Part shown: positions 50,092-56,234 of the stretch, piece after piece | Layout of the letters: every line of letters starts with the position of its first letter | How positions within the stretch are numbered: position 1 is the first letter of the stretch | Source: Candidatus Poribacteria bacterium | GTDB taxonomy: Bacteria; Poribacteria; WGA-4E; WGA-3G | Direction: 5' to 3' | Assembly (NCBI GenBank): GCA_965197475.1 | Contig: CBDANF010000003.1 | Span: forward strand, 448,001-512,000 | DNA: 64,000 nt | Made by a program: the position numbers and the translations under genes | Notes under the pieces: generated by a model | What the model was told of the DNA's origin: nothing | The model's input: only the letters and a program-made list of their open reading frames with translations | The model's database searches: none

Positions 50092-53019
50092 ATGAAAATA
50101 CGGAAAATTCTTATAACTGCAATCGTTTTCGCAAGCATCATTTCGATTCTTCCAATTTCTCATGCTTTTGAGTTTTCTTGGCAAATAGACGAAACACCTG
50201 AAGGTCAAGAGAGTGCAACTGCCGTCGAACCGATAGAAGTAACACTCTTAGATCAGCCTATACACGTGTCATCTCACAGTGCAGCAATTTTTTTAATGAA
50301 AAAGTATTCAGTTTACATAGATACAAACTGGAGCGGTTTAGACGCATACAAGCTGCTACAAACATTTGAATCGATACCACAACGAACGAATTGGAGATTT
50401 GCGAGACAAGATGTGTCTCCGTCGGTTTGGCAAATCAGTAATAGCCACATTCATAACGACATAGACATAGAACATAGAAGTGACACAAGAGTAGTCACAA
50501 TCGCATCTGATGCTTTTACCTATGCAAACCCCCTATTAGCAGAAATTGAAGGTGTCCGAGGCAGATTCTTTTCCAAACGGCTACATAATGCTGTCGTTCG
50601 GTTTGTAACCGATGACGGTAATAATAGAGATGTTATCAATAAAATACTGCGAGAACGTTATGATGTAAGCATTGATGTACCTGATTATGCAGAATTGACA
50701 AAATACACGACAGGTGAGAATCGCCACCGCTTCTCTGAATTCAAAAGCGAAGAATTATTGGTAATTCTTTCTATGCTTGAGGAATTTCCCCAAGGGATGC
50801 TTACTACACCAGGACTCAAATACCTTGTTCGCAGACTTGACGGCACGCCCAACCCCATATACCCAACAGCCCCTGCCATTGCATGGACAAGCGCAGGATA
50901 CATTGAATTCATGGAATCTGCTTTTAAAAATGCAGGCTATGACTATATGCACCGTCTGATTCTGCATGAAAAGGCACATTTTCTTTGGGAATACTTATTT
51001 GACGAACAACTCAAACAAGATTGGATTGAAATCGGCGGCTGGTATGAAAACCCCGACGACAAGGATGGATGGTCAACTACAAAGCAAGTTGAATTTGTAT
51101 CTGCTTATGCACACGGAATCAACCCGAACGAGGACATGGCAGAGAGTATTAGTTTTTACATTGTGAGACCTGACAAATTACGCTCACGTGCCCCCGCAAA
51201 ATACGAATTTATCCAAAATCGCATCATGCACGGCACACGATACATCTCACAAATTAGAGAGGATTTAACATTTGAAGTTTATAACTTATATCCTGACTAC
51301 GTCTATCCTGGAAGAATCATACGAATAGACATTCAAGTTGAAGGTGAACCCGAAGAAGATAAACTCGCAAAAATTGAAATAGAATTACACAAAGAAAGCG
51401 AATTAGACGCAGCGACAGTGGCATCTATCAGAATATTCAGTCCAAAAGGATCGTATACTGGGTTAAGACTGCGTCCAGTTGACGCACAAGGTAATAGGAT
51501 ACCTGCGGGACACATCTTACGAGGAAGTGTAGAAATTTCACGATATGCCCCTGACGGCTATTGGAATCCTGACCAAATCAATTTAACAGACGCAAACTCC
51601 AACAGTCGTTATAGTTCAAAAGTCGATTTCAATTGGATGATGTATATAAACAACCCGTTAGCTGATTGCGAACCCCCGAAATATGTGTCAAACACAATGC
51701 GATTGTCACTCTCACAACCCCAAAATACTGATGAAGGTGAATATCAGATAGTTACAGCAAGATGGCAAGCAACTGATAAAACAGACATAGACACATTAGC
51801 AGCACGGATAAACGACACATTTTTAGAAACATACTCACGCTTTTCATACGGCAAATTTGACCCTGAAACAAACACGGCAGAAGTCAATTTTAAGTTCCCA
51901 AACTACATGCCTGGCGGTGTATATAGTCTCAACTATATCACAATGAGAGACATAGCATTAAACTATTCTGCATACTATTTCACCGATCCAGAGATGGACG
52001 AAGCACCACAAACAATAGAGATACACACTACGAATCCCGACTTTGAGACACCCGAATTGGATATGAACAATATCACTATAGAAGCCACACCGACAAACCC
52101 TGAAGAACCGAATGGAGAAACTATAGTTGATATAACATTCTTTGCTAGAGATAATATTAGCGGTTACACCAAATCAGATATGCGTTTACGCGACCCGAAC
52201 GGCGTCATACATTTGTTCCGCCACTATCCTAAAGGACGAAGTGCTTTATATTTCCCTGGCGATCCGACTATATATAAAGAATACAACAAAACAATCGTAT
52301 TATCAGTCGGTAGCATTCCTGGAATTTGGGGACTTGCAGAAATGGTTCTCTATGACAAAGCAGGTAACACTCTCAAAGCCGATTTTACAGAGATCGTGCG
52401 GTTTGTCGTTGATGATACACCCGGTTCCGCTAACAAAACAGATGTCAACGGTGATGGCAAGGTCAACATTCTTGATCTGGTTTTTGTTGCGAATGCATTT
52501 GATGAATATGACGCGAAAGCGGATGTCAACGGAGATGGGGTGGTTAGCATACTGGATTTAGTATTAGTCGCAAGCTCCCTGGGAAATGACGAAATGGCAG
52601 CACCAAGTCTACACAAAAACGACCTTCAAAACTGGCTAACATTAGCACTTCAAAATGACAACGGAAGCTATAGGTATCGCCAAGGTCTAAACGTGTTACA
52701 ACGTCTGCTACTCACAGCACAACCCGAAAAAACAGCGCTGTTGCCAAACTATCCAAACCCATTCAATCCGGAGACGTGGATACCGTATCAATTAGCAGAA
52801 CCCGCAGATGTCACACTACACATTTATACTTCAGAAGGAAAGATTGTAAGAACATTTGAAATTGGACACAGACGGGCAGGTAAATATATCACAAAAAGTA
52901 GTGCCGCGTATTGGGATGGTAAAAACAGTTTTGGCGAAGTAGTTTCGACTGGTATATACTTCTATGAATTGCGAACCGATAACCAATCATTCACGAGAAA
53001 AATGATAATCGTCAAATAG
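50092..53019 (+). CDS. Secreted zinc-metallopeptidase-like protein with dockerin-like repeats and a C-terminal T9SS/FlgD-Ig-like sorting domain
   Basis: Signal peptide; LILHEKAH (HExxH) with NPNEDMAES; two DVNGDGxVxILDLV repeats; LLPNYPNPFNPETWIPYQL...TRKMIIVK. Confidence 0.82.
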   Translation: MKIRKILITAIVFASIISILPISHAFEFSWQIDETPEGQESATAVEPIEVTLLDQPIHVSSHSAAIFLMKKYSVYIDTNWSGLDAYKLLQTFESIPQRTNWRFARQDVSPSVWQISNSHIHNDIDIEHRSDTRVVTIASDAFTYANPLLAEIEGVRGRFFSKRLHNAVVRFVTDDGNNRDVINKILRERYDVSIDVPDYAELTKYTTGENRHRFSEFKSEELLVILSMLEEFPQGMLTTPGLKYLVRRLDGTPNPIYPTAPAIAWTSAGYIEFMESAFKNAGYDYMHRLILHEKAHFLWEYLFDEQLKQDWIEIGGWYENPDDKDGWSTTKQVEFVSAYAHGINPNEDMAESISFYIVRPDKLRSRAPAKYEFIQNRIMHGTRYISQIREDLTFEVYNLYPDYVYPGRIIRIDIQVEGEPEEDKLAKIEIELHKESELDAATVASIRIFSPKGSYTGLRLRPVDAQGNRIPAGHILRGSVEISRYAPDGYWNPDQINLTDANSNSRYSSKVDFNWMMYINNPLADCEPPKYVSNTMRLSLSQPQNTDEGEYQIVTARWQATDKTDIDTLAARINDTFLETYSRFSYGKFDPETNTAEVNFKFPNYMPGGVYSLNYITMRDIALNYSAYYFTDPEMDEAPQTIEIHTTNPDFETPELDMNNITIEATPTNPEEPNGETIVDITFFARDNISGYTKSDMRLRDPNGVIHLFRHYPKGRSALYFPGDPTIYKEYNKTIVLSVGSIPGIWGLAEMVLYDKAGNTLKADFTEIVRFVVDDTPGSANKTDVNGDGKVNILDLVFVANAFDEYDAKADVNGDGVVSILDLVLVASSLGNDEMAAPSLHKNDLQNWLTLALQNDNGSYRYRQGLNVLQRLLLTAQPEKTALLPNYPNPFNPETWIPYQLAEPADVTLHIYTSEGKIVRTFEIGHRRAGKYITKSSAAYWDGKNSFGEVVSTGIYFYELRTDNQSFTRKMIIVK

Positions 53020-53031
53020 TATCAAATGACC

Positions 53032-53144
53032 ATAGGATATCTGGAAGGTTGATGTTTATTGGCTTCCCAGCGATCATTAATGAGTGGGTTGCGTTGGGAT
53101 CGCGAGCATCCTCTTTGAGAAATGATGCGTTTAGCGATAAACGT
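53032..53144 (-). ncRNA. Candidate element-encoded structured RNA
   Basis: Four tiled hairpins (53128-53143, 53106-53128, 53070-53103, 53041-53070) directly downstream of a TTGACA-17-TATACT promoter. Confidence 0.45.
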
Positions 53145-53150
53145 GTCTAA

Positions 53151-53179
53151 AGTATAGCAAAACCAGTAGCGGTTGTCAA
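53151..53179 (-). promoter_or_regulatory. Near-consensus sigma70 promoter inside the element's 3' end
   Basis: Minus strand TTGACA (53179-53174), 17 bp, TATACT (53156-53151), with an extended -10 TG. Confidence 0.7.
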
Positions 53180-53246
53180 CCATATTTTCAAGGCACCTGC
53201 CCCGGTTTTGCGAAGTAAAGTTCGTCGGGAACATAGGATTAGGGTC

Positions 53247-54131
53247 TCATTGGGCTTCTCCTTGGTGAGTGGCTTCATCGTTTGAGTCTGAATTGGCAAG
53301 GTCTGCATCTATGGCTTGGAGTTGGTGCTGCGGTATGAGGTCGAGATATTGAGAGATGACGCGTTTAGAAAGTCGTGTAATCTGTGAGATTTTATCAATA
53401 TCTGCGGTTGCTTTCCGAACGACTTTGACGCTCTCATAATCGCGAATGTATCTATCAACTGCCTCCTTAGAGTGTTTGGTCTTTGCGGCAATCCTGGGGG
53501 TGAGATGTCCTTGAAGATAGAGGGTTATGATCTCTTTCTTATGGGTAATAGCCCCCGATAAGTCATGGATATTGCCACGGGTGGGCAAGAGTTCTCCAGT
53601 GGTTTTTTGCCATTCATTAACATAATCACAGACAACGGCATCGCAGACATTGAGCAAAACTGCCAAGTCGAGTTGGGTCAATAATGCCCCTTGGTCATAA
53701 GCTTGATGACACCAGCGGACCAAGCGATTGATCCGCAATTGCCGGGAGGTGAAACCGTTGCGAAAGGATTCAATATCCTCTGCGGCGAGGTAAGTCAGGA
53801 TGACGGGTTTCATGCGGGTTTTGACGATGGACTTTCCTCTTTCTGGATGCTCTTCAATAGGGACGGCCATCCAAACGAGTTGTCCATAACTCAAGAAACG
53901 CTCATCCGGGAGTTGATCGCCGGTGGCGAGTTTCTCCAAAGGAAGGGTAATCACGAAATAGTCTTCAACGGTCTTAAGAATATCATCAACAATGGCGGTG
54001 GCAGTGACTTCGCCTTTGTCATAACCATAGTCATTGAGAAAGCGGTGAATGAGCAACTGTCGTAGGGACTTATCGTTGATGCGTCTGAATTTCTTCTCGT
54101 TGATTTGCGTGCGGGTTAGAGGTTTGCTCAT
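53247..54131 (-). CDS. DUF1670 domain protein (copy B)
   Basis: QAYDQGALLTQLDLAVLL, LPTRGNIHDLS..THK, HSKEAVDRYIRDY motifs. Confidence 0.85.
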   Translation of the reverse strand: MSKPLTRTQINEKKFRRINDKSLRQLLIHRFLNDYGYDKGEVTATAIVDDILKTVEDYFVITLPLEKLATGDQLPDERFLSYGQLVWMAVPIEEHPERGKSIVKTRMKPVILTYLAAEDIESFRNGFTSRQLRINRLVRWCHQAYDQGALLTQLDLAVLLNVCDAVVCDYVNEWQKTTGELLPTRGNIHDLSGAITHKKEIITLYLQGHLTPRIAAKTKHSKEAVDRYIRDYESVKVVRKATADIDKISQITRLSKRVISQYLDLIPQHQLQAIDADLANSDSNDEATHQGEAQ

Positions 54132-54928
54132 GAGAGGTCCCCCTTTTTTGTGTCCTCAGGTTCTGGGTGAAGGAGTTGGGTTATGCGATCTGTGTGTTGG
54201 TATTCCTCATAGAGTGAGAGATACTCGCGGATCAACCGGTCAGATAGATGGGTGATCAGGCGTATCTGTGCGTTAGGAAAGCCTTGATGATGGAGCGTAG
54301 CGACTTGTGTAAAGTCTTTCAAGTAGCGGTAGACAGCTCGTTCGCTGTGGTTCGTCTTTTTCTCGATTTCGGTGAAGGTATAGGCTTTGAAATATAACTC
54401 CAGGACCTGGGTTTTATGAGAAGTGCCGGGGCCCATGTCGTGTTTCGTCCCGCGCGTCATAACGAAATACCCATCCTGCTTCAAGTGTCGAATGTCGCGT
54501 TTGACTGTAGCAGGACTGGTGGTTAATAATACAGCTAAATCCTCGTAGCTCAGTAAGGCATCTTGGTCATAAGCTTCTTGGGTCAATCGGAGGATCCGAT
54601 GCCGTATGAGTCCTGCGAGACCATAATTCGCTAAGACTTCAAGATCGGCGTTTGTGTCATTGAGAGTTAGCCGACAGGAAACTTTTTTCGCTAAAGCGAT
54701 ATGTTTACCTGCGGGTTCCTCTGCGGCGACTGCCTCGTAGCAGATTTGCCCTGATGTCAGGTGCACATCGGCGTGTTGTTCAAAGTAGGTGGAAATCTGT
54801 TTATAGTAGGCTTCAGCAACGAGAGGCATTAGATTAAAGTCTGCTGAAATCTTCTGAATAATAGCGGCTCTGGCATTCTTGGATTCGAGCCGAGTGATAC
54901 CGTAAGCGGTATCCTTCTTGCGGTTCAT
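54128..54928 (-). CDS. DUF1670 domain protein (copy A)
   Basis: EAYDQDALLSYEDLAVLL, TRGTKHDMGPGTSHK, HSERAVYRYLKDF motifs; ATG 54928 after GGAGG; ATGA overlap with copy B. Confidence 0.85.
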   Translation of the reverse strand: MNRKKDTAYGITRLESKNARAAIIQKISADFNLMPLVAEAYYKQISTYFEQHADVHLTSGQICYEAVAAEEPAGKHIALAKKVSCRLTLNDTNADLEVLANYGLAGLIRHRILRLTQEAYDQDALLSYEDLAVLLTTSPATVKRDIRHLKQDGYFVMTRGTKHDMGPGTSHKTQVLELYFKAYTFTEIEKKTNHSERAVYRYLKDFTQVATLHHQGFPNAQIRLITHLSDRLIREYLSLYEEYQHTDRITQLLHPEPEDTKKGDLS

Positions 54929-55042
54929 ATTGACCTCCATGAATAGATTATCGGGGATCCGAGGACATCTACTCGTTAGTTTAACGAATACTAATAGTAT
55001 AACTCATGGGGTCATTTGATACAAACTATAAGTAAATTTAAA

Positions 55043-55906
55043 ATGACTGGACGCAATATCAAACTGGAATCTCGCACAAAAATACTTATCATGATGATAT
55101 GTGGTTGCCTTGTCATTTTGCTTGATAGTCCTACCGCGTTGTTAACATGTTTTGTTGCAAGTATCCTTCTCGTTGCGTTTTCAGCACCAACCCTAAAACA
55201 GATCCGATTGTTACTACTCTTCCTATTTTTCACAACATGGGGATTGATTTATAGTCAGGCAATTTTCTACAACGAATTTCCTCGCACAGTTTTAATTACG
55301 CTTGTTCCCGCCGAATTGCCAATCATCGGGGATATGACAGGCGGCATCCGAATCTATCGCGAAGGACTTTTTCACGGTATTATTCAATCGATGCGGTTTA
55401 ATACCACCCTTGTGATCGGTTGTTACATTGTTTGGACCACACAACCTCGCGACCTACTTCTGGCATTGGTGCAGTTACGTGTACCTGGGGCATTAGCGTT
55501 TATGGTGACAACCGCGTTGCGTTTTACTCCATTGATTGCGAATGAAACATTAGCAATCATCCGTTCTCAAAGATTGCGCGGATTCCGTTACCTACGGTTC
55601 AACCTATTTGTCACAGTGCGCGGTGTTATCAATAGTTTGCGTCCTATCTTGGCAGGGAATATTCGGCATGCATCCCACCTTGGAGAATCGGTTGAAAGCC
55701 GAGGATTCTCACCGGACACAACATCAAAACGGACTTCATTACGAATCTCACGGATGGACAGGTGGGATTATTGTTTGCTTGCGTTGCTATGCCTCTGCTT
55801 GTTCTGCGTCATTGGTTTGAAAGTGCTCTATTTCTGCTATGTGAATGGTATCTATTACGGGGCGTGGTTGAGAGGTGTGTATACATTTGCCCGAGAGGTG
55901 TTATGA
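55043..55906 (+). CDS. Energy-coupling factor transporter transmembrane component T (EcfT/CbiQ family)
   Basis: Multi-TM; ALRFTP, SQRLRG and VESRGF coupling motifs. The listed start at 55016 lies inside the element's inverted repeat, so ATG 55043 is preferred. Confidence 0.85.
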   Translation: MTGRNIKLESRTKILIMMICGCLVILLDSPTALLTCFVASILLVAFSAPTLKQIRLLLLFLFFTTWGLIYSQAIFYNEFPRTVLITLVPAELPIIGDMTGGIRIYREGLFHGIIQSMRFNTTLVIGCYIVWTTQPRDLLLALVQLRVPGALAFMVTTALRFTPLIANETLAIIRSQRLRGFRYLRFNLFVTVRGVINSLRPILAGNIRHASHLGESVESRGFSPDTTSKRTSLRISRMDRWDYCLLALLCLCLFCVIGLKVLYFCYVNGIYYGAWLRGVYTFAREVL

Positions 55907-55944
55907 GGGATTTAGTCCGTAGGTTGGATTGAGCGCGTGTAACC

Positions 55945-56234
55945 CATAGGCATCAATTTAGTGTGCTATATGCAAAAAGATGCTGATTTGTGATGATAGC
56001 AGCACCAGCGGTGCGGAATGTTATAGAAAACAGTGTCAAACAGTCTCTTGAACCCCAGCGGGGGCAGCATGCGCTTTTGGCATGCTGCATGAGGTGTCTG
56101 ACAACACGTACACATATACACCTTTCGCCCTCTGGGGCTTGAGTTTGGTAGGGGTCGCGTGTCTGGACACCTTTCGCCCTCTGGGACTTAGATATCCAAA
56201 ATATAGGTTTATTTCCTTAAATTGACACCTATGG
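55945..56234. repeat. MITE-like repeat with CCCCAGCGGGG and GCAGCATGC palindromes
   Basis: Inverted copy of the CACCTCATGCAGCATGCCA..GCATGCTGCCCCGCTGGGG block seen at about 32295 and 34861. Confidence 0.55.

Follow-up and report, generated by a model that had tools for sequence, protein, structure and literature searches.

A two-gene DUF1670 unit in Poribacteria is a multicopy mobile element found at the ends of type IX sorting-domain genes

Two adjacent genes of the domain family DUF1670 (Pfam PF07900) lie side by side in a 64,000-nucleotide stretch of a Candidatus Poribacteria genome (assembly GCA_965197475.1, contig CBDANF010000003.1, positions 448001 to 512000; G000:C3:448001-512000 in our numbering). 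We call this whole stretch the window, and plain coordinates refer to it. The assembly is 5.7 Mb long and 92.7% complete. An earlier sequence-only reading of the window had proposed that the two genes are a mobile element of a new family, bounded by perfect 13-bp inverted repeats. The repeats are indeed exact. Between them lie two open reading frames (ORFs), A and B, coupled by an ATGA overlap. Both run on the minus strand and converge on the gene of a secreted protein, whose TAG stop shares its last base with the start of the left repeat, again as had been described. The two proteins match PF07900 with 207.3 bits (ORF A) and 208.3 bits (ORF B), the gathering cut-off being 25, and they are paralogues with 34% identity over 192 residues. 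The features of the locus are:

50092..53019, plus strand: target gene, encoding a 975-aa secreted protein with a dockerin and a C-terminal type IX secretion system (T9SS) type A sorting domain (TIGR04183)
53014..55029, minus-strand genes: the element as a whole (2016 bp); its termini are common to 20 copies, and it is precisely what is missing from the empty sites in L103, L105, L107 and L108
53014..53019, plus strand: left terminal AAATAG, which supplies a new Lys codon and TAG stop to the host gene; invariant in 20/20 own copies
53019..53031, no strand: left inverted repeat, subterminal (GTATCAAATGACC), conserved across phyla
53032..53246, minus strand: lineage-specific non-coding tail 3' of ORF B, containing the non-conserved 70-aa ORF C (53022-53234) and a partial duplicate of the ORF B 3' end
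53247..54131, minus strand: ORF B, DUF1670, 294 aa (PF07900, E 1.2e-61)
54128..54940, minus strand: ORF A, DUF1670, 270 aa (PF07900, E 2.5e-61), with the ATGA overlap with ORF B
54941..55009, minus strand: leader and probable promoter region of ORF A, assigned by position only
55010..55022, no strand: right inverted repeat, subterminal, exact reverse complement of the left repeat
55023..55029, plus strand: right terminal AAACTAT, present in 20/20 own copies and missing at empty sites and uninserted paralogues
55030..55035, plus strand: original Lys codon and stop of the host gene, AAG TAA, displaced beyond the element; the same as in the empty-site AAGTAAATTT..ATG of four relatives
55043..55906, plus strand: downstream host gene ecfT, T component of an energy-coupling factor (ECF) transporter (CbiQ family; PF02361, E 1.6e-26), which served to locate orthologous empty sites

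Our results strongly support the view that the DUF1670 unit is a multicopy mobile element. The 2004 bp from repeat to repeat match 18 full-length places in the same genome, at 2003-2012 bp and 91.9-100% identity. Two more copies, of 432 bp and 1772 bp, have internal deletions, and the shorter resembles a miniature inverted-repeat transposable element (MITE). These 20 copies have different flanks. The window copy is at least 99.45% identical to eight of the others. The 13-mer GTATCAAATGACC has 38 exact occurrences and two with one mismatch, and these 40 sites are without exception ends of the 20 copies; one extra one-mismatch site is unrelated. By an arithmetic estimate, chance would yield about 0.2 exact sites on both strands. 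In every one of the 20 copies AAATA precedes the left repeat and AAACTAT follows the right one; a comparison of the flanks shows that they diverge beyond these bases. All 39 PF07900 matches in the genome fall within the elements. The family is spread very unevenly among the genomes sampled from the phylum: PF07900 is present in 20 of 81, with 0 to 39 matches each. In a control, Methanosarcina also gave a PF07900 match. Homologous proteins are frequently found on contigs of about 2.0 kb, as for a collapsed repeat.

The exact limits of the element can be read from relatives in which the site is empty. Our comparison of the ecfT locus covered the loci L101-L111, and four same-genus genomes (L103, L105, L107 and L108) have kept a sorting-domain gene that runs as ...NNN AAG TAA ATTT(T)AAA ATG into ecfT. 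The same string follows AAACTAT in the window. Because these orthologous sites lack exactly the stretch 53014-55029, we take it as the element, although, with the host Lys codon likewise beginning in AA, limits 1-2 nt further to the right would serve equally well. The inverted repeats hence sit 5 and 7 nt inside the ends, and the limits 53019..55022 proposed earlier are off by these distances. As the empty sites read AAG TAA into ecfT, the host's own Lys codon and stop must sit to the right of the element, and it is the element's AAATAG that restores a Lys codon and a stop on the left.

The sequence-only reading was thus right to expect empty alleles in relatives but mistaken about how they look. 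Removal of the 2004 bp gives the string that it had written down, but this string is not a real empty site. The predicted GTCAAATA^AAACTATA (…AAA TA^A AAC TAT…) retains AACTAT, which is absent from the uninserted paralogues and from all four orthologous empty sites. It had also named three observations that would speak against mobility, and for each of them we found the opposite: empty alleles exist, the pair has no fixed chromosomal position, and other DUF1670 pairs are bounded by terminal repeats, both in other phyla and in a subfamily with 34-43% identical proteins.

The junctions of the other copies are built in the same way. AAACTAT is followed at once by AAR TRR in 19 of the 20 own copies, in the form of AAGTAA, AAATAA, AAATAG, AAGTAG or AAGTGA, and this flank differs even between copies that are 99.5% identical, while the left junction is constantly AAATAG. 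Paralogous tail genes that carry no insertion also end in varied AAR TRR, which is then followed by unrelated sequence and never by AACTAT. Among related loci the left junction reads AAATAG in 67 of 68, and the right flank reads AAR TRR in 63 of 78. Judged by these junctions, insertion proceeds without target duplication, in agreement with the original proposal that none is evident.

Copies have also left traces behind. In the relative L106 (genome G013), at the orthologous ecfT locus, AAATAGTATCAAATGAC is fused to the ecfT start at a shared AAATGAC (7-nt microhomology), the left-end scar of a lost copy. At L064:3900-3935 there is a solo 18-nt left-end remnant of an older copy, with a newer full copy directly beside it. 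Solo left-end remnants, consisting of AAATAG and most of the repeat, are therefore known from two independent loci. Because the L064 copy adjoins such a remnant, the regenerated Lys-stop is still a target, and it must be chiefly the left flank, the coding one, that is recognized. No further orthologous empty site emerged when the flanks of related loci were searched against the own genome, and the right flank of the copy at C3:623169 showed no conserved gene order in relatives. In the contigs of public sequencing runs, some joints pass from paralogous tail genes into the element at 53014, and another (53164>54995) is an internal deletion.

Insertion is site- and orientation-specific: the element enters T9SS sorting-domain genes at their Lys-stop end, directly ahead of the last Lys codon. 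The last 100 residues of the window target gene match TIGR04183 with 40.2 bits (cut-off 23), and 18 of the 20 own copies lie directly against the end of a reading frame with such a domain (...TRKMLILK*). A hidden Markov model made from 16 of these 18 tails finds 54 such frames in the genome, 47 of them with E < 1e-20; in this latter set 18 ends are occupied and 29 are empty. The rule extends well beyond the genome. In genome contigs of other organisms we collected 79 loci, mostly from Candidatus Poribacteria, the rest coming from Gemmatimonadota, Ignavibacteria, Bacteroidetes, KSB1, Verrucomicrobia and Calditrichaceae. At least five phyla are represented among the related loci, and the end repeat is conserved in the non-poribacterial ones. 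Where the left flank is readable, a sorting-domain tail could be recognized by eye in 58 of 66 loci. Fifty-five left flanks are free of stops, and with L035 left out of the scan, TIGR04183 was found at E <= 0.001 in 54 of 54. Tails from different phyla end, for example, in ...KRMVLMK* or ...KKLILLK*, and the orientation of the element is constant, converging on the host gene.

A minority of insertions are not at tail genes but in the loop of a conserved hairpin, GAAACCGAGTTTT...AAAACTCGGTTTC (L067-L069, L075 and L077, also L071 and L078). These hairpin-loop insertions suggest a second target class.

What is conserved inside the element is A, B and the ends. Compared with diverged copies, dN/dS (the ratio of nonsynonymous to synonymous substitution rates) is 0.05-0.15 for ORF A and 0.04-0.09 for ORF B; both are under strong purifying selection. 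ORF A is 269-270 aa long in 14 of the 18 full own copies and ORF B 294 aa in 17 of 18, and in the copy C3:685919-687923 (L011) the two are fused into a single frame of 564 aa. Two other reading frames were considered as genes and rejected. ORF C (53022-53234, 70 aa) is intact in 17 of 18 own copies, but its dN/dS is 0.55-1.2 and it contains stops in other genomes; an antisense ORF at 53691-54065 is disrupted or incomplete in 55 of 84 loci. The decay of these two frames, together with the absence of any Rfam match, leaves A, B and the ends as the conserved content. The 1.7-kb elements of Gemmatimonadota and Ignavibacteria consist of A, B and almost nothing else, the ORF C region being almost absent from them.

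The region of ORF C shows two further peculiarities. A 20-nt direct repeat (90%) links 53115-53134 to 53349-53368 and marks a portion of the non-coding tail as a degenerate copy of the ORF B 3' end. The best promoter-like site of the region, a candidate only, also lies within this lineage-specific tail, at 53151-53179 on the minus strand (TTGACA-17-TATACT with TG, 11/12); it faces out of the left end, antisense to the host tail gene.

Copies of the element also seem to recombine with each other. Two pairs of copies, C2:1160548 with C3:845190 and C2:1474045 with C3:51953, each have an identical 30-nt flank on one side only, which hints at rearrangement through recombination between copies. Two copies are mosaics when compared with the window copy: L012 (C2:1472043-1474045) has a synonymous divergence (dS) of 0.36 in ORF A and 0.04 in ORF B, and L010 (C3:3438316-3440319) has 0.017 in ORF A and 0.263 in ORF B. 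This suggests recombination between element sublineages.

The architecture of the element is shared more widely than its preference for tail genes. A subfamily known from metagenome contigs (L116-L120) retains the order A then B, although its proteins are only 43% (A) and 34% (B) identical to those of the window. Its unit of 1708 bp is 96% identical at three unrelated places, without duplication, and its ends are of the same kind: TAATAG+TATCAAATGAC... on one side and ...GTCATATGACA+CAAAGGGTA on the other. The copies are not at tail genes. Since these loci keep the pair and the ends but not the target, the pair-plus-repeat architecture characterizes the family as a whole, and the T9SS target is a feature of one clade.

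A search with ORF B of 1.84 billion cluster representatives returned 1017 proteins at E <= 0.001, among them natural proteins in which DUF1670 occurs twice (~520 aa) or three times (~930-950 aa) without any other domain. The existence of such proteins, which the fused frame of L011 mirrors, supports the view that A and B act jointly, as do the ATGA overlap and the A-then-B order of the distant subfamily. One protein of 400 aa (P0216) combines DUF1670 with a CHC2 zinc ribbon of the DnaG type (PF01807, E 3e-8).

Which protein, then, moves the element? Profile searches did not point to a known enzyme, in keeping with the original remark that no known transposase type is encoded inside. Neither A nor B matches the DEDD, DDE transposase, resolvase, phage-integrase or HUH/Y1/Y2 domains of Pfam and NCBIfam, and besides DUF1670 and helix-turn-helix (HTH) models there is no match from these two collections in the element at E <= 0.01. 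There are weak profile matches to HTH_23, HTH_28 and HTH_29 and a weak structural match to Pax5. PADLOC gave nothing, PHROGs only weak regulator or HTH matches, a protein atlas only other DUF1670 clusters; sequence searches of the PDB and a tblastn search of plasmids had no match.

The predicted structure tells the same story. We modelled ORF B with AlphaFold2 from a 36-sequence alignment (pLDDT, the predicted local distance difference test, 88.2). The model consists of three helices and one beta-hairpin (residues 1-125), a winged helix (~128-192), an HTH (~193-245) and a final helical unit (245-290). A and B are multi-HTH proteins. Foldseek found nothing for the model at E <= 0.001, an absence that is no proof of a new fold. 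The model has only two beta-strands, and no RNase H-like chain appears among the Foldseek matches or those of a wider structural search (VIA), which, by the caveats of the tools, does not exclude one; at the level of folds, a phage integrase is not excluded either. A Tn3 resolvase in the structural search is matched over its HTH only (Z 5.8, 45 residues), and the Topo VI-A chain 1d3y_B is among the weak winged-helix matches. Across 36 diverse B-type proteins A144, H197, K198, H220 and Y228 are invariant, and R139, Q147, P183, R185, G186, D190 and Y262 are nearly so. The motifs TRGxxHD, S/T-H-K, H-S/T and R/K-Y are invariant in A as well.

On balance we lean towards the view that A and B themselves catalyze insertion. 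The element itself we would, with similar caution, describe as an undescribed insertion-sequence-like family, in which two DUF1670 genes between subterminal inverted repeats form an autonomous unit and A and B act as the catalysts. Under such a mechanism, A and B together would bind pseudo-palindromic end sites with the half-sites GGTCAT and TTGATAC; in some clades the A-proximal end site is a perfect palindrome, GGTCATATGACC. They would also bind similar target DNA, namely the DNA encoding the last strand of the sorting domain (...AAR ATG YTN ATH NNN). The commonest target in Poribacteria, ...ATG TTG ATA CGG|AAG, includes the TTGATAC half-site. The two proteins would then perform conservative breakage and joining. 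The left terminus AAATAG takes the place of the displaced Lys-stop, so the product of the host gene stays the same and an insertion is probably near-neutral (a "safe harbour"). A recombinase-like mechanism fits better than a staggered cut because there is no duplication, the termini are asymmetric and the orientation is strict. We infer that A and B act as a complex; the predicted A+B complex (score 0.26, mark 0.32) is no evidence either way. The target, too, is presumably read by protein, since the 1.7-kb members have only short non-coding stretches and Rfam has no match.

How such proteins might cut DNA can be sketched only tentatively. DUF1670 could be a new class of transposase or site-specific recombinase made from HTH-type modules only, in which an A/B hetero-oligomer reads about 15 bp of coding DNA by protein-DNA contacts alone and inserts the element without duplication. 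The active site would then consist of residues that the two paralogues share (Arg-Gly..His-Asp, Thr/Ser-His-Lys, His, Tyr), and its nucleophile might be a tyrosine borne on an HTH. All this is possible rather than probable. Spo11 and Topo VI-A do carry their catalytic tyrosine on a winged helix.

Several observations weigh against catalysis by the pair and against so simple a target rule. First, the ORF B model is almost all helical, and no catalytic domain is recognized in it. Second, the wide structural search yields ordinary DNA-binding domains only, the best with Z 6.4 over 57 residues, and the N-terminal 127 residues of B modelled alone reach Z 4.8 at most. Third, the invariant residues need not form an active site, because they are at the usual structural or DNA-contact positions of an HTH. 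Fourth, a sorting-domain end is absent at 8 of 66 related loci and at 2 of 20 own copies, and a comparison of occupied with empty sorting-domain gene ends showed no discriminating base. Finally, no circle junction, excision product or transposition event was seen in the material at hand, the assembled contigs of public runs; the contigs of four such runs, in which the multicopy pieces are short, contain no joint of a right end to a left end.

The first three of these observations are what one would expect if the DUF1670 pair only recognized the ends and the target (and perhaps regulated the process), while a ubiquitous host enzyme was recruited to break and join the DNA. Both proteins resemble pure DNA-binding proteins with invariant residues at HTH-type positions, and no nuclease or recombinase fold or profile was found. 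There is also a precedent, as integrative elements exploit the host's XerCD via a small element-encoded activator. Nevertheless, we regard recruitment of a host enzyme as less likely. The partner would have to be universal, since the family is active in at least five phyla, and it would have to act at about 47 different gene ends, many sites per genome, none of which resembles a site of chromosome dimer resolution. No candidate for such a partner came to light, although no test of co-occurrence was run. Moreover, the ends are conserved beyond what a binding site usually needs, and the motif persists at 34-43% protein identity.

It is improbable that A and B are instead an unrecognized metal-dependent transposase cutting at AA with a 2-bp stagger, in which case the AA on each side would be a target duplication and the element would extend from ATAG to CTAT. 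Since the host Lys codon begins with AA, these two bases flank the element on both sides in most cases (19 of the 20 own copies and the majority of related loci), which formally allows such a duplication, and both termini would then read ATAG inward, a tidier inverted terminus. Yet the Lys codon fully accounts for the AA, and three right flanks do not start with it. They read GA in the own 432-bp MITE copy, TG in L080 and AG in L094; in the first two the left junction is still AAATAG, and in L094 the left side is off the contig. L092 has CA on the left. Classical transposases have sheet-based folds, and the ORF B model has only two beta-strands, although fold searches with these tools cannot exclude such a fold.

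Slightly less probable still is that the element is non-autonomous and moved in trans by a transposase encoded elsewhere, with A and B as cargo or regulators. No transposase is recognizable within the element, and the MITE-like deleted copies show that the element ends can be mobilized in trans. Yet the 13-bp repeat flanks no other gene set in the 5.7-Mb assembly, although at 92.7% completeness a missing master copy is not fully excluded. A and B are the sole conserved content and are under purifying selection in every lineage, and an intact A in 14 of 18 and an intact B in 17 of 18 copies would be unexpected for the cargo of a non-autonomous element.

That the unit is not mobile at all, but a conserved two-regulator cassette inherited with sorting-domain genes, would explain why the kind and orientation of the neighbour gene are always the same, but it has next to no probability given near-identical copies beside unrelated proteins that share only the tail, presence and absence at an orthologous site, deleted derivatives, insertions in hairpin loops outside genes and the patchy distribution among genomes.

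The element shares single traits with several known systems, but the defining enzyme of each was tested for by profile and not found in the element. According to a bioRxiv account (10.1101/2024.04.26.591405), and to what is generally held of the group, the IS1111 group of IS110 elements has subterminal repeats and inserts without duplication in a site- and orientation-specific manner. The DUF1670 element resembles the group in its subterminal inverted repeats, its lack of target duplication and its strong specificity for sequence and orientation. The group differs in having a DEDD transposase, for which the element has no profile match, and a sizeable non-coding region for a guide ("seeker" or bridge) RNA. 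In the 1.7-kb members of our family the non-coding stretches are estimated at only about 50 and 35 nt, and Rfam is empty, though an RNA that overlaps the genes is conceivable.

Tn7 offers a parallel in the choice of target. Its DNA-binding protein TnsD recognizes where the coding sequence of a conserved gene ends, and the gene product is left undamaged; Tn7 lands 3' of the glmS stop with a 5-bp duplication, using TnsABC with its DDE transposase, at one site per genome. The DUF1670 element has this kind of target, too, and the same safe-harbour logic. Unlike Tn7, it inserts inside the last two codons and rebuilds them, makes no duplication, encodes no such proteins and has dozens of paralogous sites. 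Islands and prophages that integrate into the 3' ends of tRNA or tmRNA genes carry a replacement gene end, with a tyrosine or serine integrase and a longer segment of identity. The DUF1670 element also replaces the end of its target gene and so keeps the gene intact; it differs in that it supplies only 6 nt (AAATAG), with identity down to the first two bases, and has no integrase profile match.

At the protein level, DUF1670 is similar to the N-terminus of IS630/Tc1-mariner transposases, with two HTH units and a short basic linker (...TRGxxHDxG...). Those transposases continue into a DDE domain and duplicate TA, whereas DUF1670 ends after a third helical unit and duplicates nothing. IS200/IS605 elements insert without target duplication, in one orientation determined by a short sequence, and have subterminal palindromes; the DUF1670 element shares the lack of duplication, the single orientation, the short specific sequence and the subterminal palindromic structures. 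IS200/IS605 elements differ in having a small HUH Y1 enzyme, no inverted repeats and single-stranded substrates, whereas the DUF1670 element has true inverted repeats and no HUH match. Several accepted insertion sequence families lack a target duplication.

The surroundings of the element are variable in their own right. In the own genome and in five relatives (L103, L105-L108) the tail gene lies between an ecfA-like gene and ecfT. In five other same-genus genomes the ecfA-like gene is directly upstream of ecfT and the tail gene is missing, which makes this host gene itself a variable insertion within the ECF operon. In L109 the sequence upstream is a different one. On the other side, in the intergenic region 3' of ecfT (55912-56100), there is a repeat of about 120-190 bp with more than a dozen other matches in the genome, at 76-95% identity, and many in same-genus genomes. 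It looks like an unrelated family of small repeats or MITEs.

The findings give the Pfam domain of unknown function DUF1670 a first function. Full-text literature searches for DUF1670 or PF07900 returned no paper and topical searches nothing relevant, within a scope that excluded the entries of ISfinder. For annotation, the 2-kb units account for many short collapsed contigs in metagenomes and for apparent "regulator pairs" beside genes of secreted proteins. If the pair is catalytic, it would be a new and categorically different class of DNA-rearrangement enzyme. It would also be compact, with two proteins of about 270-290 aa and no need for a guide RNA. Insertion at a defined sequence and in a defined orientation, with the target neither duplicated nor damaged, combines traits that are wanted in tools for site-specific integration.

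For the element itself, the strategy is an unusual one. It homes to a sequence that encodes a protein motif, and this motif is present dozens of times per genome and common to phyla with type IX secretion. Targeting T9SS tails in this way offers many safe landing sites within a genome and a route across phyla.

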